Part shown: positions 5,401 through 31,114 of the stretch, in pieces
Numbering within the stretch: position 1 is the stretch's first letter
How the letters are laid out: every line of letters starts with the position of its first letter
Source: a virus
Lineage: Duplodnaviria > Caudoviricetes
IMG/VR virus record: IMGVR_UViG_3300033489_000043
Span: 1-31,390 of that record
DNA: 31,390 bases
Strand: one strand, 5' to 3'
Made by a program: the position numbers and the translations under genes
The notes under the pieces: model-generated
The model's database searches: none
What the model saw: the letters and a program-made list of their open reading frames with translations, nothing else
Told to the model about the DNA's origin: nothing

Positions 5401-5491
5401 GCCCAACCCGAAGTGCAAGGCGAGGCGGTTCAGCGCGGTTTAAGTTTCCTGATCGGGCAGTGCGCCGCCCGCCTTAATTTGAACGTTATGC
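5401..5491 (+). repeat. attC-like site 1
   Basis: GCCCAAC-CCGAA-GTGCAAGG...CCTTAAT-TTGAAC-GTTATGC imperfect palindrome. Confidence 0.75.
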
Positions 5492-5946
5492 CTCTCAAAT
5501 CTCCCCCGTACCGCTTCGCCGCCCATCTTTACGGTGCGGTCGTACAGAATTACGTTTGCCGTCGCCGCGAGGTTCATGCAGCTATGCGTAGGCACGTACA
5601 CCACATCTCGGCACCAAGAAAGAACGCGATCCCCGAGCGTCGCATCCTCGGCACCGAAGATGTAGAACGCCCGTTCCGGATGGGTGTAACTCGCCAAACT
5701 GCGAGCGCCAGGAACCAGATCGACGGCCACCGGTACGCAGTCGTATGGAATCACGAGCCGCAGGTCTTCGGTTTCAATTACGGGCGTCATGCGCCACTGC
5801 TTTTTTACGTCGGTCGGTACGTTCCGCATCCTGTGCCCGGACATCGCAACCATCGCGGCGCCGTAGCATCCGGCAGCGCGCATCACGCCGCCCACGTTGG
5901 CAGCGCATTTCGGGTTGTCGAGTCCAATTGCCGCAAAGCCTCTCAT
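5440..5946 (-). CDS. SpoU/TrmH-family (SPOUT) RNA methyltransferase, cassette cargo
   Basis: LDNPKCAANVGGVMR, FGAED and MNLAATANVILYD motifs; SD AGGAG. Confidence 0.85.
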   Translation of the reverse strand: MRGFAAIGLDNPKCAANVGGVMRAAGCYGAAMVAMSGHRMRNVPTDVKKQWRMTPVIETEDLRLVIPYDCVPVAVDLVPGARSLASYTHPERAFYIFGAEDATLGDRVLSWCRDVVYVPTHSCMNLAATANVILYDRTVKMGGEAVRGRFERHNVQIKAGGALPDQET

Positions 5947-6289
5947 GTCGTTTCTCCTGTGTCGCAAGGCATAACCCTGCGGTCAACCGGAGCTTCGCGA
6001 TAAGGCCGCGAAGCCCGGTTACCTTGAACGTTAGGGGTCAACCCACGGACGGCGGCACTCAGCACGTCACGGTGTAGATAGTCGGCAATTCCATCTCCGT
6101 AATACAGGCGCGTTCCGTATGGCTGCTTATCCCAAAACTCAGTTGCCTTTAGCAACCCCTCAAGGCCGTGCGCGCCCTTGAATACTCCAAGCTTCGTCAG
6201 GGTATCGGCGGCGGTGAGCGCAACCCCTACCCAGCGTTCGAGTCAGACAGCCCGACATTTGCTTCTTTATCGCTCAATGGTGTTTCCAT
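5943..6289 (-). pseudogene. Cassette gene frameshifted by 1-nt deletion in attC core
   Basis: GGAG+ATG at 6289 inside site 3 reaches TAG at codon 21; restoring one T (GTTAGGGG) joins it in frame to LLKATEFWDKQ... Confidence 0.6.
5969..6036 (+). repeat. attC-like site 2
   Basis: GCATAAC-CCTGC-GGTCAACC...GGTTACC-TTGAAC-GTTAGGG, canonical R''/L''/L'/R' layout. Confidence 0.9.
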
Positions 6290-6346
6290 GTTAATCGCTC
6301 CGTTTCAAGTTTGGTGGCCGGGCTGCTGCTCAACTCTACGTTGTGC
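6224..6346 (+). repeat. attC-like site 3 (R'' lost one A)
   Basis: CCCCTAC-CCAGC-GTTCGAGT...GCTCAAC-TCTAC-GTTGTGC. Confidence 0.8.
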
Positions 6347-6594
6347 GTCAAAGGACTGTCAGTGAATCCGAACGGCCCAAAGTTTTCTATCAAAACAATA
6401 TGCGTGTCCCAACCAATTCTTTTATCAATACCTATTCCGTACTTCTCTACACGTACCATGCTCGTGGTTACTATAGGGCCAAAGTCTTTCCATTCTTCAT
6501 TTATGTGTGCCGCAACAGCGTCGGCTGTCGCATCAATTTTGGCAACCGTAAGCATGCTTTCGGCAAGACCTCCTCGGTGCGAGCGTATTTTCAT
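6274..6594 (-). CDS. Hypothetical protein, cassette cargo
   Basis: SD GGAG; reads into site 3 (HNVELSSSP) and stops in its loop. Confidence 0.7.
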   Translation of the reverse strand: MKIRSHRGGLAESMLTVAKIDATADAVAAHINEEWKDFGPIVTTSMVRVEKYGIGIDKRIGWDTHIVLIENFGPFGFTDSPLTHNVELSSSPATKLETERLTWKHH

Positions 6595-6619
6595 ATTATT
6601 TTCACTCCGTAGTATTGAC

Positions 6620-6724
6620 GCACAACCCGGCGTTCGAGCGCACGGGCAACGGCGCGGCTTCTTTCACAGTTTCATTCATGGTTTCTCCTCGCGCCGTTAC
6701 CCGGCGCTCAACTATTCGTCAGCA
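6620..6724 (+). repeat. attC-like site 4 (R' GTC variant)
   Basis: GCACAAC-CCGGC-GTTCGAGC...GCTCAAC-TATTC-GTCAGCA. Confidence 0.8.
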
Positions 6725-6992
6725 CCCAGCCCCGCGTGTGCTCTCGTACCACGTAGCGCAGTATCCCGTCAGTTTTCATCCTGTCGGCAAACCTGCTTGC
6801 GGCCAGCGCAGCGCCCTGACGTTTCATGTGGTGGTTCGGCCAAATCGCATCCGCAATCTGGCTGGCCAGTACCGGAGATGCCCCGCGCAACGCCTCCATC
6901 ACGCGCTCACATGCATCCTGGTAGCTCACAACTTTTTCGCCCGTTTTTCTGTTCAATTTTCTCTCCGTTGATCGTGACTCACAACCATACAA
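6708..6992 (-). CDS. Hypothetical protein, possible winged helix; start uncertain
   Basis: ORF fills the space between sites 4 and 5. Confidence 0.5.
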   Translation of the reverse strand: MYGCESRSTERKLNRKTGEKVVSYQDACERVMEALRGASPVLASQIADAIWPNHHMKRQGAALAASRFADRMKTDGILRYVVREHTRGWVLTNS

Positions 6993-7039
6993 TCCAGCGG
7001 AAGCCGCAAAAGCGCGACCCCCTCATTTACACGTTAGAG
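6979..7039 (+). repeat. attC-like site 5
   Basis: TCACAAC-CATAC-AATCCAGC...CCTCATT-TACAC-GTTAGAG. Confidence 0.65.
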
Positions 7040-7119
7040 CGCATGTTCCATCGCTCACAAACTAACTTTATTTTTCGTAATTAATACACTTGTAAATTTT
7101 ACGGGTGCGGTAAAATAAA

Positions 7120-7533
7120 TCAAAAAGGTATGTCATCGTCGAAATCATCAAACGAAGCTGGTTTAGCAGGTTTCGCCTTGGCGGCATTTTCATTAACTTC
7201 GCTGTGCGAGTCTTTTGGTGTGTCTTTTTTTCCTCCCAACAAAGTCAGGTCGTTAACTCGCACATCCAGCGATACGCCTTTTCCGCCGTCTCTCTGGTCG
7301 TAGCTACGCAATGTCACCTCTCCGCTTATTCCGACGAGCTGTCCTTTTCCTAGGTACGGGAGCACCGATTCGCCGCGCTTGCCAAACATGGCACAATTAG
7401 CCCACGTAGTTTTCTCTTTATCGCCATAACCAGACTTTACGGCTACGCTGAAAGATACTATGCTATCTCCGCCAGTGGTGAAGCGCTGCTCGGCTGCGTT
7501 GCCTAGATTTCCTGTGAATGAGAATATGTTAAT
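7120..7533 (-). CDS. ssb: Single-stranded DNA-binding protein, apparent ATT start
   Basis: (I)NIFSFTGNLG N-terminus, YLGKGQLVGISG, DDFDDDIPF acidic tail. Confidence 0.9.
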   Translation of the reverse strand: MNIFSFTGNLGNAAEQRFTTGGDSIVSFSVAVKSGYGDKEKTTWANCAMFGKRGESVLPYLGKGQLVGISGEVTLRSYDQRDGGKGVSLDVRVNDLTLLGGKKDTPKDSHSEVNENAAKAKPAKPASFDDFDDDIPF

Positions 7534-9292
7534 TTTTTGTTCCTACCTTTCTGTTTTCAAATTGAATGTCGCCCGCAAATTCTGCCAAAATCCATTCAAG
7601 AGCGGTTTGCTCACTAATGTCGAATACATCCGCCAGCAGTAACAGCAATTCTTTGCGTGTCGGGCGAAGGTTACGCGCTGCGTTCGCATCTGCCACGGCT
7701 TTATCGGAAAGCACGGCAGGAGCTTTTGCCGATTCCGCAATCTGCGCATCTGCTTCGCGTTCTGCGGCAAGGATAGCCAAAGCTTCGGCCTGTGCCTTTG
7801 CGGTGGCTTTGCGCTCTTCCTCGCGCTCTATGCGCATCTTCTCCATCGCATCGGACTGCGCCTTAGCTTCCTCTTCCGCCCGGATGCGCAGACGCTCTTC
7901 TTCCAACTTTTCGGCGGCTTCCTTTTCGGCCTTGGTCTTGGCTTCGGCTTCCATGCTGGCGCGCTGGGCTTCAACGTCGGCCTTTTGCTTCTCGATCCGG
8001 CTGGTGATGGTCAGGGTGAAATCTTCCATTGGCTTTGACATCAGTGTTTGCAGGTCAGGAAATAGCGCGCTTTGACCGGCTGCATTTTCTTTACACCATG
8101 CTAACTTTTCTCGCACGTCCTTAACTGCCTCGGCGGCGGCAAATTTCCCATCACGAAGCGCGGTATCTACTGCATCTTGCATGGCCGACAGCTTTTTCAG
8201 CCCCTTCATTGCACCTGGAAAGTCTGGGTGTTGAGCAACTAGGCGGATCGGCTTAATCTCGGCTTCCAGCGCGGAGAAGTATTCATTGAAGTCCGCGCGA
8301 GCTTTCAGGACAATTGCCTCTTTTCTGGATTCCTTTTCACTTTTCACCAGTTTATCCAGCATCAAGCGCTTGTCGGCAAGCTGTTTCTTGATGTGGTCGA
8401 GCGTGCGCACCACTTCATCCACGGTGGACATCTGCGCAAGTACGCTGGCCTTTGTCGCTTCCAGGTTGCCTTCGGCTTCTTTGCAGAATTTCACCGTTGA
8501 TTCAGCATCTGCAAAATCCTGATCCGTGGTCAATTCTGTTTTGATATTGGCGATGAACGTGGTGGCCGCTTCCCTGAATTCCGCAAGGTTGCTGGCTGTC
8601 ACCATGCCAGTTGCCTGCACGAATACGGCTGGAAGGGCTTTGATGGCTTCGGCTTGCGGCGCTTCCTTTTGTTGCATGATCTCGCCTGCGGCCAGTTTGC
8701 GCTTGTATTCTTCAACATCCTTTTTGAATTGAATCCAGCCGGCGCCGATGCGTTTGCGCAGTTCAGGATTCGGGTAGTACCAGCAATGCAACTCTTCGAT
8801 CAGATTTCCATCTTTATCCCACTTGGACGCCATGAACAAGCATTTCTCGCCTTCGCATACCTCTGCTTGGTGTTCCATTTGAACCTGATGCTCTTCGGGT
8901 AGGTCGGCTCCGGTAACGCCCTCGCGCGACAAAACTTCGCGCAGTTCTTCGTTGAGCGATTTGTGCTCAAACCAGACAGACTGGCCGTAGGTTATACCGT
9001 CGAAGCTGGCTGAATATTCATCGCGCGCGCCAGTCACAGGTGAAAGCTCATCGCCGATGATCTCTTCGGCCAACGGGCGGGCCATCGACTCGAAGCGGTG
9101 TCCATCATTGAATCGGCGCTGAGTTGCGTCGTCAACCTCTTGAATGATGCCGGTTGCGCGCTCTTTGATAAACTGGCTGCGCGCCTTGTGTTTGCTGATT
9201 CCGAGCATGGTTGGAGCATCGCTGGCGTTGAATGCGGTGGCGCGGTGGGTGTGCCATTCCGGGCTTCCTTGTACGAGGTTCAGGATTTTCAT
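7529..9292 (-). CDS. YqaJ/lambda-Exo-like exonuclease with long coiled-coil C-terminus
   Basis: MKILNLVQGSPEWH, ASFDG, FEHKS, HQVQMEHQ motifs; ATGA overlap with bet. Confidence 0.88.
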   Translation of the reverse strand: MKILNLVQGSPEWHTHRATAFNASDAPTMLGISKHKARSQFIKERATGIIQEVDDATQRRFNDGHRFESMARPLAEEIIGDELSPVTGARDEYSASFDGITYGQSVWFEHKSLNEELREVLSREGVTGADLPEEHQVQMEHQAEVCEGEKCLFMASKWDKDGNLIEELHCWYYPNPELRKRIGAGWIQFKKDVEEYKRKLAAGEIMQQKEAPQAEAIKALPAVFVQATGMVTASNLAEFREAATTFIANIKTELTTDQDFADAESTVKFCKEAEGNLEATKASVLAQMSTVDEVVRTLDHIKKQLADKRLMLDKLVKSEKESRKEAIVLKARADFNEYFSALEAEIKPIRLVAQHPDFPGAMKGLKKLSAMQDAVDTALRDGKFAAAEAVKDVREKLAWCKENAAGQSALFPDLQTLMSKPMEDFTLTITSRIEKQKADVEAQRASMEAEAKTKAEKEAAEKLEEERLRIRAEEEAKAQSDAMEKMRIEREEERKATAKAQAEALAILAAEREADAQIAESAKAPAVLSDKAVADANAARNLRPTRKELLLLLADVFDISEQTALEWILAEFAGDIQFENRKVGTKN

Positions 9293-10122
9293 TGTTGGAC
9301 CCCCTTCTCCCATGATTGAATTTCGTCCAAAACTTCTGCCGGTAAAATGTACTTCGCCGAAAGGAAGTCGATCAGGTTCTGTGCCGTCTCTTCCTGATGC
9401 TCGATCAGGCTCTTCGCGCTGAATTTTGTCACCACGCCGTCCGCATCCAATTTGTCGGTCGAATACTTTTTCAGGTCGGAGAGCGTCATAGTTTTGCGCT
9501 CTGGCTTTTCTGGGATTACTTTGGCGGTTCCTTCGATTGTAGTAAATCCTCCATCCGCCTCGATTATGCGCTCTGCTTCGTCTTGATCGAAGATACCGGC
9601 GAATCCGAAAGCAAGGCGCGCAGCTTGAATCAGCGTCTTGTGCCTGTGCATCCGCTTTGGGTGAGTATCCCAAGGGGTAGTAAAATTCACAGTGCGCATC
9701 ACTTCATCAAGAAACTCGCGAACCACAATAGGCTTCGATCTGTCTTTGCGGGTGATGATGCAATCAATCCATTCATGCACAGTCTTTCCTTTGTGCTGAG
9801 TAGTTTCTGGGGAATACACAAATTCAAGTCCATCCATTTGCGGGTTTTCGTTGATAATGCGCGCCCATCCATCCACCGACACAACAGGAACAATCGCGCC
9901 CTTATCTGGGTATGCGTATATTTCCTTGGTGAACGGGTTGAGACCGTACTGATCTGCGACGACAAGCAGCATGGTCATTTGCTCATTTGAAATCTGCATT
10001 CCCTCTTTTTGCTTAAATGCCGTAGCTTTCAGCGTGTCAAGAAATTTTGCTTCATCGACGCTGTATTTCTCGGCGAAACGATGCACTAGAGATTGATTTT
10101 GTGTTGCAAGTGCTGTAGTCAT
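9289..10122 (-). CDS. bet: Phage ssDNA-annealing recombinase (Bet/RecT family)
   Basis: ADQYGLNPFTKEIYA, VSVDGWARIIN, PWDTHPKRMHRHKTLIQAARLAFGF; SD AGGAGG. Confidence 0.92.
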   Translation of the reverse strand: MTTALATQNQSLVHRFAEKYSVDEAKFLDTLKATAFKQKEGMQISNEQMTMLLVVADQYGLNPFTKEIYAYPDKGAIVPVVSVDGWARIINENPQMDGLEFVYSPETTQHKGKTVHEWIDCIITRKDRSKPIVVREFLDEVMRTVNFTTPWDTHPKRMHRHKTLIQAARLAFGFAGIFDQDEAERIIEADGGFTTIEGTAKVIPEKPERKTMTLSDLKKYSTDKLDADGVVTKFSAKSLIEHQEETAQNLIDFLSAKYILPAEVLDEIQSWEKGVQQ

Positions 10123-10131
10123 AAATCCTCC

Positions 10132-10281
10132 TTAAATATGTTTCCATGTGCGGCGATTTGCTATGTCGCTAATGGTTGTTTGAGATACCAAAAACCGGCT
10201 TGCTAATTCTTGCTGCTCTGCGCCGTGCGACAATCTCATGCGAATGGCGATAACCTGATGCGCGGATTGTGAACGGTTCAA
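10132..10281 (-). pseudogene. Orphan C-terminal HTH of an HNH homing endonuclease
   Basis: Hand translation QVIAIRMRLSHGAEQQELASRFLVSQTTISDIANRRTWKHI*; no nuclease domain upstream. Confidence 0.55.
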
Positions 10282-10283
10282 AT

Positions 10284-10610
10284 TTATTCATTTTCAACGT
10301 ACTTCGCAAATGATACAGGTTTGCCACCCCCAATTTGTACAGTGCGTTTGTCCACGTCAACGGTTATGATTTCATACTCGTTGTCGTATATCTTGCAAGA
10401 AATCCCAAAACCTGTAGTTTCCGCCCAATATTCACTCGGTATCATCTGGCAGAAAATAATCCTCGTTAGGTACTGAAAATCATGCCACCGACTTTCCCCG
10501 CGTTTAAGTGCCAAACGTAAAGTTTCAGGCAGTTCGCTCCCGTTCCAATGCGTGTAAAGAACAACCTGTTCTTCGCCTCTCTTTACAACGATGTTTGCTC
10601 TATCTCCCAT
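10284..10610 (-). CDS. Phage hypothetical protein
   Basis: SD AAGGAG; MGDRANIVV...LYTHWNG. Confidence 0.7.
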   Translation of the reverse strand: MGDRANIVVKRGEEQVVLYTHWNGSELPETLRLALKRGESRWHDFQYLTRIIFCQMIPSEYWAETTGFGISCKIYDNEYEIITVDVDKRTVQIGGGKPVSFAKYVENE

Positions 10611-10649
10611 TTCCACACTCCTTTTCACTTGATTAATTTGCAGTTCACC

Positions 10650-11100
10650 ACTGCTACCACTACAACTTTCGCTGCCAGTTGTTCAACCGTTCAGCACTAG
10701 GCTTGATAGGATGCTGTCAAAACTGTTTGTGGTCTGGCACATGCTTTCGCCATTGCTATGCTGATAATCCCGTTTCACTTAGTTCATATCGGTATCGACA
10801 GCTTATGACCATAGGTGCTCACTGTCTCTTGCTTTAGGCATTCCGTCTCTGTGCTCTACACCTTCCTAATAGCTTCAGCCGATACTGGAAGCTCAAAGCG
10901 ATCAAACTATATTAGGCTTGGCTCGGCGTTGGCATTCTTACTGCGATTGCAGATACTGCTAATCACTTACCCCACTATCCAGTCTGGATACTTACTCCAT
11001 GCATAGAGTAGGGTTAGTTAAGTAAGATTAAGCGTTCGCCGAATTTACGGAAATTCATCTAGCGGGTTTCCCTTGAGTTGTTTACGTACATCCAGCAGCA
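10650..11100 (-). ncRNA. Group I intron-like RNA (boundaries approximate)
   Basis: P3 TTCCGT/ACGGAA, P4 TTCGGCG/CGCCGAG, P6a CCTAATA/TATTAGG, P7 GAGCACA/TGTGCC, GAAA-capped P9 in the expected order. Confidence 0.7.
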
Positions 11101-11150
11101 CGATTTACTAACTCATTTTTCGCTAGCGGGCTTTAACAATCTCCTTTACT

Positions 11151-11417
11151 TCATTTGAATCCTGACAACTTGCGTAAACCTAATACCAGAGCCACTTTGC
11201 TCCAGCTCCCGCTCCCGCTCCAGCTCCTGCTCCTGCTCCCGCTCCAGCTCCTGCTCCCGCTCCCGCTCCCGCTCCCGCTCCTGCTCCAGCTCCTGCTCCA
11301 GCTCCCGCTCCTGCTCCTGCTCCTGCTCCAGCTCCCGCTCCTGCTCCAGCTCCTGCTCCTGCTCCAGCTCCCGCTCCTGCTCCTGCTCCATAACTCGCGC
11401 ATAATAACGGCGTTCAT
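11151..11417 (-). CDS. Ser-Arg/Gly/Trp low-complexity protein
   Basis: ATG immediately after upstream TAA; SRSRSGSW repeats. Confidence 0.55.
   Translation of the reverse strand: MNAVIMRELWSRSRSGSWSRSRSWSRSGSWSRSRSRSGSWSRSWSRSGSGSGSGSRSWSGSRSRSWSGSGSWSKVALVLGLRKLSGFK
11199..11390. repeat. Hexamer tandem repeat GCTCC(A/C/T), about 32 units
   Basis: Direct reading. Confidence 0.95.
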
Positions 11418-11774
11418 TTACTTTTGACTCCGTGGCAGGTCTTTGCGCAGCTCGCACACATCTAGTAACGCTCCGCGATTGATATATACCGGCAGGCCAT
11501 CTGGGTACGGCTCACATTCTCTGACTTTCCCTTCGGCCACAAACTGCATAAACCTATCCGTTTCCGGTATCCAAGAGCAATCCACAAGCACCAAATCTGT
11601 TTCGCTGACCGACTCCAGCCTGCCGGTATATATCATCGTCACAGTACGAACGATAACGTTCTTGCCAACCGGATATGCGCTCTGCGTGGCGGAATGTTGC
11701 GGTACAGCGCATAAAGCTTGAATCTCGCGGATTTGCTTCAAGGTAAGTTCTTCGATGTTCATTTCATACTCCAT
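11418..11774 (-). CDS. Phage protein with probable Sm/SH3-like beta-barrel
   Basis: VGKNVIVRTVTMIYTGRL; probable start at 11762 after GGAG. Confidence 0.7.
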   Translation of the reverse strand: MEYEMNIEELTLKQIREIQALCAVPQHSATQSAYPVGKNVIVRTVTMIYTGRLESVSETDLVLVDCSWIPETDRFMQFVAEGKVRECEPYPDGLPVYINRGALLDVCELRKDLPRSQK

Positions 11775-11926
11775 AATAGTTAATAGCTTACTCAGGGCGG
11801 CTTACCCGCCAGCATCGCTTCTAAGGCGCTTAGCAAACCACCCGATCAACTCGACATCGTTTAAGACGCGGTTATCTTAGCGGTCGCTTGTTGCTGTTAT
11901 CAGCGATGCGCTGCTGATGGTTAGAC

Positions 11927-11999
11927 ATCATACAGATATTTTTGATTGTGTCAAGGGGTTCGTGAACATCTTGACATAATCTGTCATTGCGATAATAAT
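11927..11999. promoter_or_regulatory. Back-to-back divergent sigma70 promoters with operator-like palindrome
   Basis: Leftward TTGACA-16-TATGAT (11954-11927); rightward TTGACA-17-AATAAT (11971-11999) containing TGACA-N5-TGTCA; gene orientation switches here. Confidence 0.7.
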
Positions 12000-12020
12000 A
12001 TCGAAACTTTGGAGGCTTTC

Positions 12021-12182
12021 TTGGACAAAAAAACAGAAATAGCAAACGCAAAAAAACGTAGAGCAAAACTACTGGCTCAATTTAATCGGCTTGGGATTAC
12101 AAAGCGTAAATTTGCCGAGATGCATAACTTATCGGCTGAGAGAATCGGGCAGTTATTAAGAAAGGCGAGCAATGAAATATAA
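12021..12182 (+). CDS. Small Cro-like HTH regulator
   Basis: SD GGAGG + TTG; GITKRKFAEMHNLSAERIGQLLRK. Confidence 0.65.
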   Translation: MDKKTEIANAKKRRAKLLAQFNRLGITKRKFAEMHNLSAERIGQLLRKASNEI

Positions 12183-12287
12183 GACATTATTTTCAGCATG
12201 GATTGTTCTTGGTGTTCTTTGGTTGGTTACTGCGGCAGTGGACTTTATCAATGGGGATACATCAATGGCTTTCGCGGATAGGTGTAA

Positions 12288-12572
12288 ATGGTGTATTACA
12301 CACAACTGGAAAAACTGAAAGCGCGCAAGCCGCACAGATGCACAAGTTGCGGAGAAGCTATCGCTATAGGAGAAGCATACTACAGATGGCGATCCTATGA
12401 ATGTGGAGATGCAGGAACCCACAAAATGCATCCTGAATGTTATGAGATGCACGATGCCGATGCAGTTGGTGGGGAGTGGGAGTACTCGCCATATAGCCAC
12501 GAGCGTCCGGAAGTGACGCACAGCGTGCAAGGTGAGGCGTTGCCAATCTCGAAAGGACAAACGAAGCTATGA
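12288..12572 (+). CDS. Zinc-binding hypothetical protein
   Basis: ARKPHRCTSCG...HPEC; stops within attC loop. Confidence 0.7.
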   Translation: MVYYTQLEKLKARKPHRCTSCGEAIAIGEAYYRWRSYECGDAGTHKMHPECYEMHDADAVGGEWEYSPYSHERPEVTHSVQGEALPISKGQTKL

Positions 12573-12640
12573 ACGACCAGACACCAATGCCAGCGAAAGA
12601 ATTCACTTCAGGGCAGTCCCGCTTGACCGTAGGGTTAGCC
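12518..12640 (-). repeat. attC-like site 6 (R' GCT variant)
   Basis: Minus: GGCTAAC-CCTAC-GGTCAAGC...CCTCACC-TTGCAC-GCTGTGC. Confidence 0.7.
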
Positions 12641-12901
12641 GCTGACTTGCGGACAAGATCGGGGCAGGAAGCATCTGTGATTGAGCAAATACGTGAGTAT
12701 GGCGGATTCTCGATATTCTGGGCAACCGAAACACAGCGGAGAGCGTGCGCCATAGAGCGACTGCAAAAGCGCGGAGAGATTAGCAGAATTGGCGGAAGCT
12801 ATCCATTTTGTAAATATGAACTGGCGCACAACGTTCAAATTGAGGCGCCGCCCGCTTCTGGGCGGTCGCTCTCGAATGCAGGGTTGTGCGTCAAAACGTA
12901 A
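12569..12901 (+). CDS. Hypothetical cassette protein starting inside site 6 and reading through site 7
   Basis: AAAGGA + ATGA overlap in loop; C-terminus HNVQIEAPP...SNAGLCVKT. Confidence 0.65.
   Translation: MNDQTPMPAKEFTSGQSRLTVGLAADLRTRSGQEASVIEQIREYGGFSIFWATETQRRACAIERLQKRGEISRIGGSYPFCKYELAHNVQIEAPPASGRSLSNAGLCVKT
12826..12889 (-). repeat. attC-like site 7
   Basis: Minus: GCACAAC-CCTGC-ATTCGAGA...CCTCAAT-TTGAAC-GTTGTGC. Confidence 0.9.
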
Positions 12902-12915
12902 CTACGGAGATAAAA

Positions 12916-13200
12916 ATGGAAATCAACAAAATAGCAGCACGGCAATATGACTGGGTGGAGCGCATGGGCTGGCATAACAAAACCGTGCTTGAGGCGCTGG
13001 CGCTGATCGCAAGCGAAGTAGGCGAAGCGGTGAACGAGTGCCGAGGTGAAGCGCCATCCGAGGATTTTCCAACGGAGCTTGCGGACATCATCTTGCGGAC
13101 AGTTGATCTTGCCCACTGGCAGGGCATCGACATTGCGGACGTGATCGCTACAAAGATGGCGAGCAACGAGCGGAACGGAACGCGGGGCAGGCGCATTTGA
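12916..13200 (+). CDS. MazG-like NTP pyrophosphohydrolase, cassette cargo
   Basis: LIASEVGEAVNE and ELADIILR (ExxE...ExxD) motifs; SD GGAG. Confidence 0.8.
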   Translation: MEINKIAARQYDWVERMGWHNKTVLEALALIASEVGEAVNECRGEAPSEDFPTELADIILRTVDLAHWQGIDIADVIATKMASNERNGTRGRRI

Positions 13201-13201
13201 C

Positions 13202-13264
13202 GCACAACGTAGAGTTAACCGGCTCCGCGCTTTTGCGGAGTCCGGGTTCAACGCCGGGTTGGGC
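13202..13264 (-). repeat. attC-like site 8
   Basis: Minus: GCCCAAC-CCGGC-GTTGAACC...GGTTAAC-TCTAC-GTTGTGC. Confidence 0.88.
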
Positions 13265-13286
13265 GGCATGTGGAGCCAGCGGTGGG

Positions 13287-13730
13287 CTAATCGTGCTTGA
13301 CGACGCGACCGACTATGAAAACAGAGACAAGACCAATGACCGTCGTACCGCCAATAACTCCTGCAACAGCAGGAGAACCCATAGCCAGCGCCAACATTGA
13401 GGCTCCAAGTGCGGTGAGGCCGATTACGAAACCGAAAAACTGGCCTCTTTTTACTTCGGCCTCCATTGCGCGCAAGGCTGCAAATTCGATTTCTTGTTGG
13501 TGCTTCGTATCTGACTCGGCCATTATCAAGATGCGTTCAGCGGCACCCTTGACGAGATGTTCATACCCCTCAAGAACTGAAGGGGGTGGCATGGGGCCTG
13601 AGAAAGTGGATTGCTGGAACTGTGCAACAGACTTGCTATTGCCATTTGCGCCGGAAGCAGTAACCGCGCCGTTGGCGGTGCTAACGGCGTTCTTAGGCTG
13701 CTTTGGTTTTTGTGATTGGGGTCGAGCCAT
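13287..13730 (-). CDS. DUF2335-like membrane protein
   Basis: FSGPMPPPSVLEGYE...GAAERILIMAE...RGQ followed by two TM helices. Confidence 0.8.
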   Translation of the reverse strand: MARPQSQKPKQPKNAVSTANGAVTASGANGNSKSVAQFQQSTFSGPMPPPSVLEGYEHLVKGAAERILIMAESDTKHQQEIEFAALRAMEAEVKRGQFFGFVIGLTALGASMLALAMGSPAVAGVIGGTTVIGLVSVFIVGRVVKHD

Positions 13731-13902
13731 TATCAGCGAACGAACCGCAAGCGCGGCTAACAGACTCGCCGACATGGGTGAAATGACTAGCCATGCGTTC
13801 AGCACCGCTACGGCGCGGTGCCAATTGACGCAGATTGCGCGCAGGAGCCAAGTCCATCACGCTCCCTGCGCCACGAAGAAAATTCTTTGTTTTCGTATTC
13901 AT
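13693..13902 (-). CDS. Small hypothetical partner of DUF2335 gene
   Basis: FLRGAGSVMDLAP; overlaps start of DUF2335 gene. Confidence 0.6.
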   Translation of the reverse strand: MNTKTKNFLRGAGSVMDLAPARNLRQLAPRRSGAERMASHFTHVGESVSRACGSFADNGSTPITKTKAA

Positions 13903-14802
13903 GGCCGAATGATAGCCGCAAGCGGCTTGACAATCAAGTCGTTAAGCGTAACGGGAACGTCACATTCCCGGCACGTGAGGTTCTTGACGCCCAACGTATA
14001 GTAGCCGGCAAAAACGCCGGATATGCTGGTAATACCGGACAAACACGGCGTTTACCAATACGCATGACCATTGCTAGTTTGATTGCAAATCAAACATTGT
14101 GCATCGAAGCCTGACTGTGCGCACAGCGCCCGGATGGAAATAGCATAGAAAACAGTGGTCATCCGTGTTGGTAAGGGCAATGTCTGGTAGGTACTAGCTA
14201 CCAGACACCCAACAGCGTGAAGTGTGCTACCGGAGACCGTTAGTAAGCTAGACGAAAGCGCGAAAGGTCGCAATGCACACTAGCTCGGTATAATAGAGCT
14301 GCCAACACTAATTTTGCTGGTGAATGCGCATGCTGAGATAATCCCAGCAAAATGTCGATTGAGCTTGCGACAAAAAAGGCGGCGAGCCTTAAATGAATAA
14401 GTTTCCGTGTTTCTTGCGCGATGGTAACGAAATGACCATGCCGGATATCGTAACCGGCAAATTTTCCGCTTGCTATTGGTTTGCGGAAGCTTTAAAGTTA
14501 TATTTGTTCGCGGGTTAACCGCCGCGACAACCAATGTCGAGGTGCCAATGTATCAAATCAGTTTCTTCAGTGATGGGCAGTCGGCTTTTAGCCAATGCCT
14601 CGTATCGGCTAGACTCCTGTTGGGTTGGTTGCCCAGCGCCCATCACAGAGGATATTGATATGACGATAAATACCCCAGAATACCTCCGCTGCTACGCAGT
14701 TGCGAAATCCATCCCATCACGCAAGAATAAGCGCCCGGCGATACTGTTTTGGTTTAAGTGCGCAAAAAAGATGTTGAAGGCGTCCAAAGATAGGGGTGAT
14801 AA

Positions 14803-20431: not shown

Positions 20432-20518
20432 TATTGGCGCTGAGTTGAGGGGCGAGGAATGAGCGAAGCGAATGACGAGTCCAGCCGCGCAGCGGCGACC
20501 TCGAACGCCGTGTTAGAA
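20432..20518 (-). repeat. attC-like site 9 (R' degenerate)
   Basis: Minus: TTCTAAC-ACGGC-GTTCGAGG...CCTCAAC-TCAGC-GCCAATA. Confidence 0.65.
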
Positions 20519-20529
20519 CGGCGGGCGTT

Positions 20530-20811
20530 ATGGAACGAAGAATAGTTTGCGCGGCAATGCGGAACAGTGCGGGTGATATTGTGACCGGAGCGCGTCATTA
20601 TGACGGAATCATGCGACAGCACATAGAACGGCTGCGCGAGTCGCACGGGCATGATGTGTGGTCGAAGAGCGACATTGAGCAAGGTTTCATTGACCAGCGT
20701 GGAGAGTTTCTGACACGCGAAGAGGCGCACAAGGTTGCAGCCGAAGCTGGGCAGATCATCCGGCGCTGCGGAGGCGATGATGTGAGGCTGTTCAGCGAGA
20801 ACCTGTACTGA
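20530..20811 (+). CDS. Phage hypothetical protein, cassette cargo
   Basis: IVCAA...GARH...QGFIDQRGEFLTREEA...LFSENLY. Confidence 0.75.
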   Translation: MERRIVCAAMRNSAGDIVTGARHYDGIMRQHIERLRESHGHDVWSKSDIEQGFIDQRGEFLTREEAHKVAAEAGQIIRRCGGDDVRLFSENLY

Positions 20812-20814
20812 GGT

Positions 20815-20878
20815 GTCGAACGTAGAGTTGAGGGGGCGCGCCCGCTTTTGGCGCGTCCCTTGCAACGATGGGTTAGCC
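20815..20878 (-). repeat. attC-like site 10
   Basis: Minus: GGCTAAC-CCATC-GTTGCAAG...CCTCAAC-TCTAC-GTTCGAC. Confidence 0.85.
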
Positions 20879-20977: not shown

Positions 20978-21055
20978 CAGTGTGTAATGTCAATCTGGTA
21001 GACGGCCTGCTTTGGAAGCAGGAGGCTGAAGGTTCAAATCCTTCCACACTGACCA
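20978..21055 (+). tRNA. tRNA-Pro(TGG)
   Basis: CAGTGTG/CACACTG acceptor, CCTGC-TTTGGAA-GCAGG, GAAGG-TTCAAAT-CCTTC, encoded CCA. Confidence 0.92.
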
Positions 21056-21503: not shown

Positions 21504-21692
21504 ATGAAAATCGCAACTGAAAAACCATACCGTATTTTTGCCGAAGTTTTGGAGCAAGGCGCGCTCGATCAATTCGAGAGCGCGATGCAACAGCCGTTTG
21601 CAGTGCGTGGCGCACTGATGCCTGACTCTCACTCTGGATACACTCTACCAATCGGGGCGGTGATCGCCACGGATGGCGTGATACTGCATTAA
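21504..21692 (+). pseudogene. rtcB: Orphan N-terminal fragment of RtcB
   Basis: KPYRIFAE...GALMPDSHSGYTLPIGAVIA aligns with N-terminus of 22228 gene. Confidence 0.9.
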
Positions 21693-21696
21693 CCTG

Positions 21697-21725
21697 TTGA
21701 GTTATGATAACGGGTGCGGTATAAT
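21697..21725 (+). promoter_or_regulatory. Sigma70-like promoter at start of HNH insertion
   Basis: TTGAGT-17-TATAAT. Confidence 0.6.
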
Positions 21726-21754
21726 TACGCATTGTTTTTATCGGTAACTTTCAA

Positions 21755-22234
21755 ATGGCGTTATCAACCAAGGAAATAAAAGCCCGTTATTTCAAGAAAA
21801 AGTACGACGAAGCACCAGAAATAGAATGCCTTTGCGGGTGTGGCGAAAAGATTAAATCTATTGATGCGTATGGCAGGCCGAAAGGTTTTGTTAGTGGGCA
21901 TAATGGGCGAAAATACGCGGACAAGTATGGGCATAAAAAAGAATGGGTTAAAAGAAACCGTGACTGGGTAAATTCGCGTAAACAGCGATTATCCAGAGAG
22001 CGTAAATTGTTTTTAATGACGCTGAAAAATTCAGTCTGTAAAAATTGCGGACTTGAGTACGACGGTAAAAATGGATCGGCATTCCATTTCCACCACACAA
22101 ACCCAGAAAATAAAGAGGTTGAGATCGGAAGCAATTTAAACAATATCTCGCTTGATGCCCTGATTGGCGAGGTTGAAAAATGCGAATTGCTTTGCTCTAA
22201 CTGTCACTCAATTAAACATCAAGGAGAATGGTAA
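21755..22234 (+). CDS. HNH homing endonuclease
   Basis: CLCGCG...SGHN, CKNCG...FHFHH...KCELLCSNCH. Confidence 0.88.
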   Translation: MALSTKEIKARYFKKKYDEAPEIECLCGCGEKIKSIDAYGRPKGFVSGHNGRKYADKYGHKKEWVKRNRDWVNSRKQRLSRERKLFLMTLKNSVCKNCGLEYDGKNGSAFHFHHTNPENKEVEIGSNLNNISLDALIGEVEKCELLCSNCHSIKHQGEW

Positions 22235-23397
22235 TGTACAAAGGAAAATATGTTGAATCGCTTGGTATGACTGACTTGCAACATCTTGATTCTCTCGGAA
22301 AGCCTTACAAAATATTTGCTGAGATTATTGAGGAAGCCGCGATACTTCAATTCATTGACTACATGGATCAGGATTGGGTCGTTAAAGGCGCTTTGATGCC
22401 GGACGTGCATTCCGGCTATTCGCTGCCGATTGGTGCTGTAATCGCTTGCGATGGGGTTATAAGCCCACAAGCGGTTGGCTACGACATTGGTTGCGGAATG
22501 TGCGCGTTGCCAACGACCTTTGAAGCGGGCGAAGTGAAGGAAAAGGCAAAGGCAATTTTCGACGGCATTTACAAGGCCGTCCCGGTCGGGTTTTCGCACA
22601 ACCAGAGAAACACCGAATGGGATTACAGCGTCCTTCCGCGCACTGCCAAGATGCAGGAGATTTTCGACAAGAACGGGCTGCGCCAGATCGGCAGCTTGGG
22701 CGGTGGTAATCACTTCGCCGAAGTGGGAGCGGACGAAACTGGGAAAGTTTGGGTTGTGATCCATTCCGGCTCACGCGGCATCGGACACGCGGCGGCATCG
22801 CACTACATGCGATTGGCGAGCGGTGACGGGAAAGCGCGGGAAGGGCATTTTGGTTTTGACGTGAACGAAACGAACGGGGTTGACTACATCGCCGACTTAG
22901 GGTTTTGCCTTGAATTGGCGCTTGAGAATCGGCGCGAAATCATGCGCCGTATTGAGGCTGTGCTTTCGGCTAACTGCACCGGGTTTGGCGATTGGGATGC
23001 GCTGATAAACCGCAACCATAACCACGCCGAACTGAAAGACGGGCTATGGATTCACCGCAAGGGCGCTACACACGCCGAATCCGGGATGATGGGCGTGATA
23101 CCGGGCAACATGCGGGACGGCAGCTTTATCGTGCGCGGCAAAGGCAACCCATATGCGTTGTGGTCAAGCTCACACGGCGCAGGCCGTGTGCTTGGGCGCA
23201 AGGAAGCGCAGCGCACTTTGAACATGGAGCAATTCACCGAAGCCATGACCGGAGTGGTTGCGCTGGTGACAGCCGAAACACTCGACGAATCGCCATTTGC
23301 TTATAAGTCAATTTATGATATAATCGAATCTCAAGTAAGGGATGGCATGATCGAAAAGGTTTGCCACATAAGGCCGATTATCAACATAAAAGGATAG
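22228..23397 (+). CDS. rtcB: RtcB RNA-splicing/repair ligase
   Basis: MPDVH, GYDIGCG, GSLGGGNHF, HSGSRG, HNH, HRKGAT, IPGNM, SHGAGR, DESPFAYK, NIKG. Confidence 0.96.
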   Translation: MVMYKGKYVESLGMTDLQHLDSLGKPYKIFAEIIEEAAILQFIDYMDQDWVVKGALMPDVHSGYSLPIGAVIACDGVISPQAVGYDIGCGMCALPTTFEAGEVKEKAKAIFDGIYKAVPVGFSHNQRNTEWDYSVLPRTAKMQEIFDKNGLRQIGSLGGGNHFAEVGADETGKVWVVIHSGSRGIGHAAASHYMRLASGDGKAREGHFGFDVNETNGVDYIADLGFCLELALENRREIMRRIEAVLSANCTGFGDWDALINRNHNHAELKDGLWIHRKGATHAESGMMGVIPGNMRDGSFIVRGKGNPYALWSSSHGAGRVLGRKEAQRTLNMEQFTEAMTGVVALVTAETLDESPFAYKSIYDIIESQVRDGMIEKVCHIRPIINIKG

Positions 23398-23399
23398 CA

Positions 23400-23957
23400 A
23401 TGGAAACGAGCTTTGAGTATGCCGCTGGCTTTTTTGATGGGGAGGGATGCGTAGGAATTTATCCCGGATCATATAAAGGAAAGCTTGCCAGATATACCCT
23501 TAGAACTCAGTTGGCGCAAAACAAAAACTCATTAACTGATGAGCTTTTTAAGTGGTTTTCCGATACGTTTGGCGGCGGTATATCAACGCAAATTTCGCTA
23601 TCTGGAAACGAAAAATTGAACTGGCAGCTTAATGGAGACAATGCAAATAATTTTTTGCGAATAATTTCCCCGCATCTTGTCTTAAAAAAACCGCAAGCAG
23701 ATATTGCAATATCTTGGCAAACGAAAAGACCAAAACAAATCCACTTGCCAAGCGGTCAATTCAGATTTGAGACTGCGCCAGATTTAGTTTTTGATGCTAA
23801 GGTTTGCGATTTAATGAAAAGGTGCAAGCGAGAAATCCTTGAGGATGTAATAGCAGATGATGAAATGCTGCTGACGTATCAAAGCGTGATGGCGCAGCAA
23901 ACCGACATGGTTGAGGTTGTTGCGCACGTCAAGCCACTGCTGAACATCAAGGGATGA
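23400..23957 (+). CDS. LAGLIDADG endonuclease fused to displaced RtcB C-terminus
   Basis: YAAGFFDGEG, ISPHLVLKKPQA; tail YQSVMAQQTDMVEVVAHVKPLLNIKG. Confidence 0.88.
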   Translation: METSFEYAAGFFDGEGCVGIYPGSYKGKLARYTLRTQLAQNKNSLTDELFKWFSDTFGGGISTQISLSGNEKLNWQLNGDNANNFLRIISPHLVLKKPQADIAISWQTKRPKQIHLPSGQFRFETAPDLVFDAKVCDLMKRCKREILEDVIADDEMLLTYQSVMAQQTDMVEVVAHVKPLLNIKG

Positions 23958-23963
23958 ACGCGG

Positions 23964-24027
23964 GGCTAACGTTCAAATTGAGGCGCGGCGCGCTGTTGCG
24001 CCGTCGCTCTCGAATGCAGGGTTAGGC
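23964..24027 (-). repeat. attC-like site 11
   Basis: Minus: GCCTAAC-CCTGC-ATTCGAGA...CCTCAAT-TTGAAC-GTTAGCC; arms near-identical to site 7. Confidence 0.9.
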
Positions 24028-24048
24028 TTTTGAAAAGGAGAATGAAAA

Positions 24049-24336
24049 ATGAGCGACAACGACAAAGTGATTTGCCCGAACTGCGTGCATGAATTCGTGG
24101 CCGTGTCCGTGAACATACAGGCCAAGTTGACGATGAAAAATCAGAAGGTAGTTACTTTAACATCGTTCGACTTACCACCGAGGCTAATAACTTCAATAAA
24201 CGCATTTGACGATGCAATGGTAAAAGCGATAGATACTGTTATCGAATCTGGTGTGCATCGTGGAATGATAGTAGGGATGCTTCACGCATACGCACATGAG
24301 CAGACTAGAAGGATGGTTGAAGATGGGTACGCCTAA
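24049..24336 (+). CDS. Hypothetical protein, cassette cargo
   Basis: SD AAGGAG; stop is the TAA of GCCTAAC. Confidence 0.7.
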   Translation: MSDNDKVICPNCVHEFVAVSVNIQAKLTMKNQKVVTLTSFDLPPRLITSINAFDDAMVKAIDTVIESGVHRGMIVGMLHAYAHEQTRRMVEDGYA

Positions 24337-24417
24337 CGTAGAGTTAACCGGCTCCGGGCAGCCTTATCGCCCGGAGTCCAGCGACCGAAGGGAGCGAGGT
24401 TGAGCGCCATGTTATGC
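24331..24417 (-). repeat. attC-like site 12
   Basis: Minus: GCATAAC-ATGGC-GCTCAACC...GGTTAAC-TCTAC-GTTAGGC. Confidence 0.88.
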
Positions 24418-24722
24418 CACGCAGCCACGGGAGAGAGCGAATGCCCTGCTACATAGAGCCGATGAGGGACGGCGGCACGATGTTTCTGTGCGGCGCCTTT
24501 GGGCCGCATTGCGCGGATTGCGGAGCCGTGGGAGACAACCTGTGCGATTACCCGGTAGGTGATGGCAATACATGCGACCGCAATATTTGCGACCGCCACG
24601 CCCATGAGGTGGCACCGAACATGCACTACTGCGACCAGCACTACGCGGAGTGGCGAGCGTTCCGCGATGCAGGCGGGGTGAAATCAGAGCTTGAGAACGT
24701 GGTGCCGTTTCATGGGGCATAA
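24414..24722 (+). CDS. Cys/His-rich zinc-binding hypothetical protein, cassette cargo
   Basis: CADC, LCDYP, TCDRNIC, YCDQH; stop is the TAA of GCATAAC. Confidence 0.7.
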   Translation: MPRSHGRERMPCYIEPMRDGGTMFLCGAFGPHCADCGAVGDNLCDYPVGDGNTCDRNICDRHAHEVAPNMHYCDQHYAEWRAFRDAGGVKSELENVVPFHGA

Positions 24723-24782
24723 CGGACAGGTTCAGGGGCTGGCGGGCAGTTTCGCCAGTCCCGCTGGAACCGAGAGTTAGAG
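24717..24782 (-). repeat. attC-like site 13
   Basis: Minus: CTCTAAC-TCTCG-GTTCCAGC...CCTGAAC-CTGTCC-GTTATGC. Confidence 0.88.
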
Positions 24783-24962
24783 GGGTGATTTGATGTGGAA
24801 CAGTTCCCACAAACCGGGGTGCATTTTGGATTTTCCGGCTTCCCAATCCTGCCATGTGCGCAGTGCTGAATGCACCAAGCTGGCCGCCGTTTTCTGCGTG
24901 AGGCCGGCAGCTTTACGGGCTGCGCAAACCTCACTGTTTGACGGGATTAATCCGGGTTGCAT
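24777..24962 (-). CDS. XRE-family HTH protein
   Basis: ARKAAGLTQKTAA...RTWQDWEAG; stop in CTCTAAC. Confidence 0.8.
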   Translation of the reverse strand: MQPGLIPSNSEVCAARKAAGLTQKTAASLVHSALRTWQDWEAGKSKMHPGLWELFHIKSPL

Positions 24963-25195
24963 GGTTCGAGTTTCAGCCCAGCCCGATAGCCGCGCCCAAG
25001 TGCCGCGCGCATCGGGTCGGTGGATGATTCCGCAGACAGCCACATATCATGCTCCGCCTGCGTTCCGAATTGGTCGCCATGGTGGGCGCGGCGCAGGCCG
25101 CGCATGTGCCCGGCCCACCACTCGGATTCGACCGGATCGTCTGTCAGCCGGCGTAGGGTGTCAGCCCTACGCATCAGGGTTGCGAAATTGCTCAT
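24947..25195 (-). CDS. Hypothetical protein
   Basis: ATGA-coupled within inverted operon. Confidence 0.6.
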   Translation of the reverse strand: MSNFATLMRRADTLRRLTDDPVESEWWAGHMRGLRRAHHGDQFGTQAEHDMWLSAESSTDPMRAALGRGYRAGLKLEPCNPD

Positions 25196-25416
25196 GTTTG
25201 GTCGAAAGCAACGGCCTCACCAGCATCGTACCCGTCGATGTAGTCAAGCACGTCTGCCGGGAGTCGGCGAAAATGAATGTCGAGGCTATCCAGGACACAG
25301 ACCAGAGGCGTGCAAATAGCCAGGTTAGACGGGTAACGCTCATTGGGGAGCATTTCGGCTTTCATACCGGCCAGGTAGCCGGCAAAACGAGCGGGGGACA
25401 TTGTGGACATTTTCAA
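25192..25416 (-). CDS. Hypothetical protein
   Basis: SD GAGGAG; upstream promoter TTGCGT-16-TATAAT near 25475-25502. Confidence 0.55.
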   Translation of the reverse strand: MKMSTMSPARFAGYLAGMKAEMLPNERYPSNLAICTPLVCVLDSLDIHFRRLPADVLDYIDGYDAGEAVAFDQT

Positions 25417-25555
25417 CTCCTCACCAGGCTACCGGCTGGCGTCGGCGGGAAGCGTTGCGCATCCCATGAACTGAATTATACGCGGATTTCGCGTAAACGC
25501 AAGAACATTTTTGAATTATTTTTCGGATGGCGTGGCGTGGCGTGACGGCCAAGCC

Positions 25556-25611
25556 CTCTAACGCAAAAGTCACCGGCGCCGAAGGCGTCCGCGTGGACTG
25601 ACGGGTTATGC
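25556..25611 (-). repeat. attC-like site 14
   Basis: Minus: GCATAAC-CCGTC-AGTCCACG...GGTGACT-TTTGC-GTTAGAG. Confidence 0.85.
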
Positions 25612-30865: not shown

Positions 30866-31114
30866 ATGAGTGGAATGGGAGACTTTATTACTGGTGGAAT
30901 GGGATTTGGTAAGATTCTGAGTAGTTTAACAGCAAAAGCTGCTACACAATCAGCCCCAATTTTAAAAGAGCCAACAGTGATGCCGACTGCTGACGATGCA
31001 GCAATTCGCGCAGCTAAACGCAAAGCTCTTGCAGGCCAATCTAAACGTAGTGGAAGACAGTCTACAATCCTATCTGGCGATGGCGGAGTTGGATCATCCG
31101 ACACATTGGGCTAA
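30866..31114 (+). CDS. Small protein upstream of portal
   Basis: MPTADD...SGRQSTILS...TLG, typical pre-portal gene of podoviruses. Confidence 0.65.
   Translation: MSGMGDFITGGMGFGKILSSLTAKAATQSAPILKEPTVMPTADDAAIRAAKRKALAGQSKRSGRQSTILSGDGGVGSSDTLG

Follow-up and report, generated by a model that had tools for sequence, protein, structure and literature searches.

The DNA analyzed here, referred to as the window, is the entire virus record IMGVR_UViG_3300033489_000043 (IMG/VR; Caudoviricetes), a 31,390-base stretch described as a soil phage and about 60% complete, whose gene products include SSB, YqaJ, RecT, DnaB, RtcB, and a small terminase. It carries arrays of hairpins of the type formed by attC, the site that accompanies integron gene cassettes. 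Judged from their sequence, these arrays appear to be a real variant of integron cassette arrays written backwards, with each hairpin in front of its own gene. The comparative counts establish the inversion, a crossover between AA and C of the core (AA|C), three ways in which predicted genes end, crossing of the hairpin in the AAC frame only, starts in hairpin loops that sit on AAC-frame stops, and variable tails and leaders. Roughly nine in ten hairpins close the AAC frame, and about a third of the long hairpins have a Shine-Dalgarno (SD) motif plus ATG in a loop predicted to be open. We consider it likely that the hairpins were selected as portable stop-and-restart joints with one agreed frame, an explanation that includes shuffling by a host integrase, ribosome restart, and protein tails acting as linkers.

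The window contains at least 14 attC-type hairpins. A structure filter returned 11 matches, 10 of them attC-like, against 0 to 2 per shuffle in five shuffles, and a strict set held 6 against 0 to 1 in the shuffles; the match at 30924 is probably due to chance and was not counted as attC-like. The degenerate sites 3, 6, and 20432 were annotated by hand, and site 8 came from a looser filter. The hairpins form a left array (sites 1 to 5, 5401-7039), a right array (sites 6 to 8 plus a half-site at 13989), a pair (20432-20877), and a third array (23964-25611). All three arrays and the pair have at least two attC sites close together and no neighboring integrase, which places them among the clusters of attC sites lacking an integrase (CALINs). 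Paired AAC/GTT cores closing the hairpin are intact in sites 1, 2, 5, 7, and 8 and in four third-array sites, and the cores are degenerate in sites 3, 4, 6, 20432, and 20815. The L boxes are complementary at 5 to 7 of 7 pairs, with an extrahelical G (C in site 8) on the arm opposite the bottom-strand AAC. We applied the definition of the attC bottom strand given in passages of PMC5027507. The bulge falls on the coding strand's 3′ arm, which identifies the coding strand as the attC bottom strand and means that the genes run opposite to those of ordinary cassettes. Two stretches of the window, 13287-13902 and 24947-25410, are exceptions and have their genes on the top strand, as bacterial cassettes do. 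The exit core ahead of a gene complements the next entry core in 8 of 11 window junctions (site 3 counted despite its short core), and sites 5 and 25556 have no gene near them on the coding strand.

This orientation prevails among viral loci. The comparison set comprised at least 278 viral loci, 144 bacterial loci, and 135 metagenome stretches, collected with frame-blind patterns of one consensus pattern family; all counts are among the matches listed, with full flanks for up to 80 loci per scan. In the standard cassette the gene is on the top strand with attC behind it. At the viral sites, the hairpin's own gene lay on the bottom strand in 338 cases and on the top strand in 24, with 58 uncalled (n = 420), so that 338 of the 362 called genes have the opposite layout. 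The bacterial sites gave 123 top, 15 bottom, and 60 uncalled (n = 198), and the metagenome sites 140 top, 15 bottom, and 45 uncalled (n = 200). Upstream genes follow the same pattern: 417 of 442 viral sites had enough upstream DNA, and the upstream gene was on the bottom strand at 358, on the top strand at 16, and uncalled at 43. Five loci from bacteria or metagenome-assembled genomes (L351 from Rhodanobacter caeni, L337, L366, L371, and L416) have bottom-strand genes flanking attC and are possibly prophages.

The predicted frame in which an upstream gene meets the entry core, named here for the codon read there (AAC, ACG, or YAA), sets how the gene ends: at a stop just before the core, at a TAA within the core, or, in the AAC frame only, within the hairpin of the next cassette. 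Among the 358 upstream viral genes, 100 have a stop ahead of the core, 133 end on its TAA, and 125 continue across. A stop at position −4, mostly TGA, is present for 47 of 64 ACG-frame genes versus 24/130 and 31/144 in the other two frames. A core TAA is found for 140 of 144 YAA-frame genes and for 78 of 130 AAC-frame genes. Crossing occurs in AAC for 122 genes, in ACG for 2, and in YAA for 1 (n = 125), or 114, 1, and 1 when counted per family (319 protein families, 363 genes, 5 of them from the window). A caller-free test for 50 stop-free codons across the crossover gave 178/59/16 of 415 viral sites versus 35/39/9 of 194 bacterial sites. The first-pass annotation of this DNA had proposed checking for frame bias over many phage attC sites, and the bias it anticipated is there. 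In a random draw of 74 crossing calls, 32 had a PHROG match, comprising 30 AAC crossings at plausible sites, one ACG crossing, and one false site inside a portal gene. A reverse transcriptase fragment, perhaps a group II intron remnant, also crosses an attC in the AAC frame (L052:1108-1506).

The hairpins close the AAC frame most tightly. A stop falls inside the site in 304/333 cases for AAC, 230/334 for ACG, and 247/331 for YAA; tails of more than 30 residues number 7, 76, and 63, and fusions to the next gene 2, 24, and 33, respectively. The attC-encoded tails have a median length of 9 amino acids (aa) and range from 1 to 30 aa. Multiples of three are overrepresented among site lengths (164/334 viral and 83/111 bacterial sites), and such a length brings the stop in the far L box into the AAC frame of either strand; the bacterial figure is driven by 60-nucleotide (nt) sites from few genera and was not used here.

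The loops of long hairpins also supply starts. SD plus ATG occurs in the loop of 68 of 186 long inverted sites, compared with a mean of 12.5 and a maximum of 24 in 50 dinucleotide shuffles and with 1 on the other strand, in keeping with the loop starts that had been suggested from the window. Of these 68, 59 start a called cassette gene, 7 start leaders, and 2 stop in the core. The long canonical metagenome sites have SD plus ATG in 4 of 122, against 3.2 in their shuffles, and purine skew therefore fails to explain the loop starts. The predicted unpaired fraction is 0.55 and 0.67 in the loop zones versus 0.18 in the arms. In 76 genes called from a loop ATG, the start is overlapped by the first AAC-frame stop in 36, by the first ACG-frame stop in 4, and by that of YAA in 10; per hairpin cluster the figures are 25, 1, and 5 (n = 42), and where the present neighbor does not cross they are 22, 2, and 8 (n = 44). 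A PHROG match was found for 12 of 69 loop-start genes, and 10 of these 12 begin at most 7 residues from the exit core.

Comparisons of related cassettes locate the exchange. Homologous genes diverge directly past the Asn encoded by the core (e.g., L021/L209, L146/L260, and L196/L274), and several families contain both crossing and self-stopping members. In the viral loci, 213 of 292 cassettes have an exit core that is complementary to the following entry core, versus 61 where it is complementary to their own. Whole-cassette pairs (n = 17) were too few and too diverged for placing the crossover, so flank pairs, which are non-independent, were used. The hairpin is retained with the downstream flank in 13 of 47 pairs and with the upstream flank in 0 of 25 (random, 7/800), and identity in the spacer behind AAC falls to the random level, which together place the main crossover at AA|C.

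The left array illustrates these features on the minus strand.

5401-5491, minus strand (coding strand, the attC bottom strand): site 1, an attC-type hairpin of 91 nt
5440-5946, minus strand: SpoU-family methylase gene (PF00588, E = 5e-12), in the AAC frame through site 1 with its stop in the loop
5969-6036, minus strand: site 2, a hairpin of 68 nt through which the AAC frame passes
5943-6226, minus strand: body of the site-3 cassette gene, with a PNVQGN tail at site 2, separated from the loop start by a short core
6224-6346, minus strand: site 3, a hairpin of 123 nt with GGAG and an ATG (6289) in the loop
6274-6594, minus strand: phrog_8785 gene, entering site 3 in the AAC frame with an HNVELS tail
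6602-6679, minus strand: leader open reading frame (ORF) of 25 aa, beginning in the site 4 loop, with its stop 8 nt ahead of the next ATG
6620-6724, minus strand: site 4, a hairpin of 105 nt with a mutated entry core
6708-6956, minus strand: unknown gene, entering site 4 in the ACG frame and ending TNS-stop
6979-7039, minus strand: site 5, a degenerate hairpin, the first of the left array, behind the ssb gene

The entry motifs HNVQIK, PNVQGN, HNVELS, HSVQGE, and HNVQIE, reported in the first-pass annotation, are all present at sites 1, 2, 3, 6, and 7, with the core AAC read as a codon. Its claim of a fixed entry frame in the window holds for these five genes and fails for gene 6708-6956. At seven other junctions the gene brings its own stop, before the core in five and within the core in two. 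The HNVQIK tail in the AAC frame belongs to the SpoU gene, whose 44 viral homologues have different or missing tails. The closest three carry other NV-type tails, one of them with a detected hairpin; a further two stop at the core TAA, and most end soon past the domain. The AAC-frame tail through site 2 ends on the SpoU start in an ATGA overlap (5946-5943) that, like the inversion of genes relative to attC, had been overlooked. In the phrog_8785 gene the family match stops at residue 82, just ahead of a 22-aa tail (counted from Asn) encoded by attC, and two homologues finish without this tail. The C-termini of cargo homologues thus differ in the comparison that had been proposed, and single-protein scans listed few loci for three of the window genes (3, 2, and 1).

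Sites 3 and 4 both have start signals in the loop. In site 4, GAGGAG and ATG 6679 lie on the 5′ side of an A-rich loop, the frame exits as SNAG-L, and the short leader equals the N-terminus of a full gene in L213. The proposed pattern of a loop start leaving the hairpin as NNG-TTR is found here and at site 6 (LTVG-L) and breaks down at site 3, where the exit core lacks one base of GTT and the loop frame runs into a stop directly after SNAG, at 6227. The letters of this short core are identical, with 0 differences, in contigs of three sequencing runs (X1, X2, and X3) from two studies, runs that are not fully independent, since X3 derives from the same sample and X1 is possibly the source; on this basis an assembly error was rejected. 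No RNA run was listed among those carrying the sequence. Three homologues of the site-3 gene conserve residues upstream of its sole later start, TTG 6155. Together, the identical letters and the conserved residues indicate that the site-3 cassette gene is probably a pseudogene. A homologue in L424 (900-1000) has kept the leader and a degenerate 3′ arm and lost the 5′ arm, and its start and the upstream stop overlap, suggestive of a domesticated hairpin.

The right array lies mainly on the plus strand.

12288-12572, plus strand: gene entering site 6 in the AAC frame (HSVQGE), with a phrog_7314 match at residues 9-56 and a stop that overlaps the loop ATG
12518-12640, plus strand: site 6, a hairpin of 123 nt with AAGGA and ATG in the loop
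12569-12901, plus strand: gene of 110 aa, starting within site 6 and ending beyond site 7
12826-12889, plus strand: site 7, a hairpin of 64 nt predicted to be translated along its full length in the AAC frame (HNVQIE)
12916-13200, plus strand: MazG-like gene with its own stop, a TGA at −4 ahead of site 8
13202-13264, plus strand: site 8, a hairpin of 63 nt
13287-13902, minus strand: two-gene cassette in normal (top-strand) orientation, phrog_26284 plus DUF2335
13989-14001, plus strand: terminal half-site, a core with no full hairpin, the AAC frame being stopped two codons on

In site 6, AAGGA lies 11 nt upstream of ATG 12569, and the ATGA stop/start overlap noted in the first reading of the window is confirmed at 12569-12572. 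Locus L472 carries a gene 90% identical to gene 12569 that has another leader and another tail, of 2 residues; of the changes in the first 16 codons past the core, 5 are synonymous and 3 are not. The entry core behind gene 12569 (12826-12832) is not complementary to that gene's own exit core, as it is in L472 (L472:1186), so this junction was altered by something besides a clean AA|C crossover. The normally oriented cassette of phrog_26284 and a DUF2335 membrane protein (13265-13995) closes an otherwise inverted array; its ends are complementary (site 8 exit versus 13989-13995), and a relative about 89% alike is present in run X1. Contig joints at 6629-6993 and 12885-13206 were considered as excisions and rejected, as their sides are short and at least one derives from the paralogous site 23964.

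In the explanation that we favor, a host integron integrase would perform the shuffling of cassettes. A ribosome arriving in the AAC frame would open the hairpin, terminate in its loop, and begin again on the gene that follows, and selection would maintain this coupling between adjacent genes. The tails and leaders would then be tolerated linkers rather than functional domains.

Several findings weigh against this explanation. No match to PF00589 (tyrosine recombinase) was found in the contig, which is about 60% complete, nor were intI, attI, or Pc, although no search was aimed at attI or Pc. Gene calls came from our own simple caller, a self-trained codon and SD model that behaves sensibly on the window. 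The 233 of 358 upstream genes that end before or in the core never enter the hairpin, and ribosomes are therefore not generally routed through the hairpins, as had been supposed. A fixed exit frame, also claimed initially, is rejected: TTR is preferred, in a mixture of 51 TTR and 25 GTT (27 versus 14 by cluster; p = 0.06). Another in-frame ATG lies within 75 nt in 40 of 77 loop-start calls, 10 with an SD motif, so some loop starts may be miscalled, and SD plus ATG occurs in just 1 of 13 long inverted metagenome sites. Within the window, no coupling is seen at site 1, the SpoU and MazG genes have their own SD motifs, the site-3 gene is probably broken, and site 4, its core mutated, is entered in a frame other than AAC. 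The replacement of front hairpins and the behavior of canonical cassettes, both taken up below, point the same way.

The strongest competing account, which we find unlikely, makes these features a by-product: the frame rule would follow from attC geometry, the tails would be tolerated junk, and the loop starts would have arisen in purine-rich loops without selection for coupling. Under this geometry, TGA at −4 and the core TAA close two frames, and an L-box stop closes the third. Canonical cassettes seldom read into attC, but those that do share the AAC preference (10/13 bacterial and 7/9 metagenome, 17/22 in all). In bacteria the AAC frame is closed on 85 of 111 bottom strands (77%), although these are untranslated; the figures for short sites are 77/98 in bacteria versus 127/148 in the viral set. 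Part of the frame pattern is therefore inherited attC structure. The account also accommodates tails as short as 1 aa and as long as 30 aa that are missing from many homologues, and bottom strands described as purine-rich in passages of PMC5027507. However, the −4 stop has eroded to about 20% in genes that can do without it and is maintained in those that need it, canonical long loops show no excess of SD plus ATG, and an AAC-frame stop lies on the loop start even where the present neighbor does not cross (22/44).

A further alternative, quite improbable in our estimation, is that the hairpin itself is the mobile unit, exchanged at both cores by top-strand recombination or by RecT-type annealing in the conserved arms. 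Start modules would then be grafted onto new cargo, and cassettes would arise in this way, a consequence compatible with selection for stop-and-restart joints. The front hairpin is replaced in 34 of 47 flank pairs, which plain bottom-strand recombination fails to explain; it also differs in 16 of 17 homologous whole-cassette pairs and, where the flanks are 88% or more identical, in 5 of 10. Near-identical long hairpins sit between unrelated flanks on either side in 86 of 87 pairs, and gene 12569 and its L472 counterpart differ at both ends. The phage encodes RecT and YqaJ, and low-rate top-strand recombination is described for some attC sites in passages of PMC5027507. On the other side, the hairpin at times stays with the downstream gene and never with the upstream one, and spacer identity among the viral pairs (0.49 versus 0.42) does not place the exit breakpoint. 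Chromosomal integrons also typically carry near-identical attC sites on unrelated genes.

That shuffling serves to diversify C-termini (stability, localization, or degradation tags) is very hard to credit: the tails do vary between homologues from the Asn onward, but they are short, dictated by hairpin pairing, outside the family profiles, and absent from many homologues, and nothing suggests that they are the functional modules originally envisaged.

Returning to hairpins as stop-and-restart joints, a broader proposal is possible but doubtful. Environmental phages may share a reading-frame standard in which inverted attC sites act as free-standing stop/restart modules exchanged at both ends. 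A hairpin with SD, ATG, and leader could be grafted onto unrelated cargo, and any gene in the AAC frame could be coupled to any next cassette. Cassette genesis would then be visible in the sequence, with phages as its workshop.

The remaining hairpins lie to the right of these arrays.

20432-20518, plus strand: hairpin (site 9 of the first-pass annotation) with a destroyed entry core and a loop ATG at 20459
20815-20877, plus strand: attC-type hairpin whose upstream gene has its own stop
23964-25611, plus strand: third array, with hairpins at 23964-24027, 24331-24417, 24717-24782, and 25556-25611

Site 9, grouped earlier with the loop-start sites, lies beyond the interval (6274-12901) to which that claim referred; it does have the loop ATG and a leader, of 28 aa (SNAV-L), which overlaps the next start, while its SD spacing is poor and its entry core destroyed. 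Just behind hairpin 20815 is a tRNA gene (20979-21051), the sole Rfam match in the window. In the third array, the core TAA terminates two genes. Two or three small top-strand genes lie between hairpins 24717 and 25556 (24777-25416) and form a second normally oriented cassette; one of them has a weak helix-turn-helix match. Between the pair and this array, rtcB (22234-23397) lies between two homing endonuclease genes with its ends duplicated (21504-23957): a 62-aa ORF at 21504 repeats the RtcB N-terminus ahead of an HNH-like gene (21755-22234), and a LAGLIDADG ORF (23400-23957) ends with a copy of the RtcB C-terminus. On the minus strand at 11146-11457, about 33 six-base repeats form an ORF rich in E, Q, R, and L (Ser, Arg, Gly, and Trp in another frame), and sequencing reads break in this run.

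In the usual view, a cassette is a gene followed by attC, and the hairpin hinders translation of the next gene. A large phage pool has the opposite layout, which shows how accessory genes could be shuffled in phage operons without breaking translation. The start sites and protein ends of such genes may often be mis-annotated, and the arrays offer a testable handle on how attC sites become joined to new genes. A full-text literature search, with most subscription papers outside its coverage, returned no account of inverted, frame-locked phage cassettes, just phage CALINs and mini-ORFs in attC.

The phage arrays share with integron cassettes, as described in passages of PMC5027507, the AAC/GTT cores, paired L boxes with an extrahelical base, unpaired spacers, a variable loop, a switch of neighbor at the bottom-strand AAC, and complementary cassette ends. 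They differ from them in that the genes lie on the bottom strand, the hairpin precedes its own gene, and the crossover falls inside or beside the 3′ end of the neighboring gene. Clusters of attC in phages without an integrase are known as phage CALINs, and IntI1 recombined five of six such sites (Qi et al. 2023, PMC9892861, in part); the passages available of that text describe typical arrays with some divergent attC sites and do not treat translation, start codons, or a frame rule. Insertion at attG (bioRxiv 10.1101/2022.09.11.507474) would explain arrays seeded at gene ends without attI, as at half-site 13989, and the portion covered is silent on inversion and reading frame. The closest translational parallel is ORF-11 of attI1 and the short ORFs in attC, reported in excerpts of PMC8876359 and PMC11511950 to aid reinitiation. 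There too, an ORF spans the crossover point, its stop codon being supplied by the incoming cassette, and termination-reinitiation through the hairpin helps the downstream gene; what is described, in the excerpts of PMC8876359, is a short top-strand helper peptide that is occasional. By contrast, the ORFs that cross attC in the phage arrays are entire cargo genes, on the bottom strand and in a single frame across more than 100 families, and the loops provide the start and N-terminus of the cargo gene.

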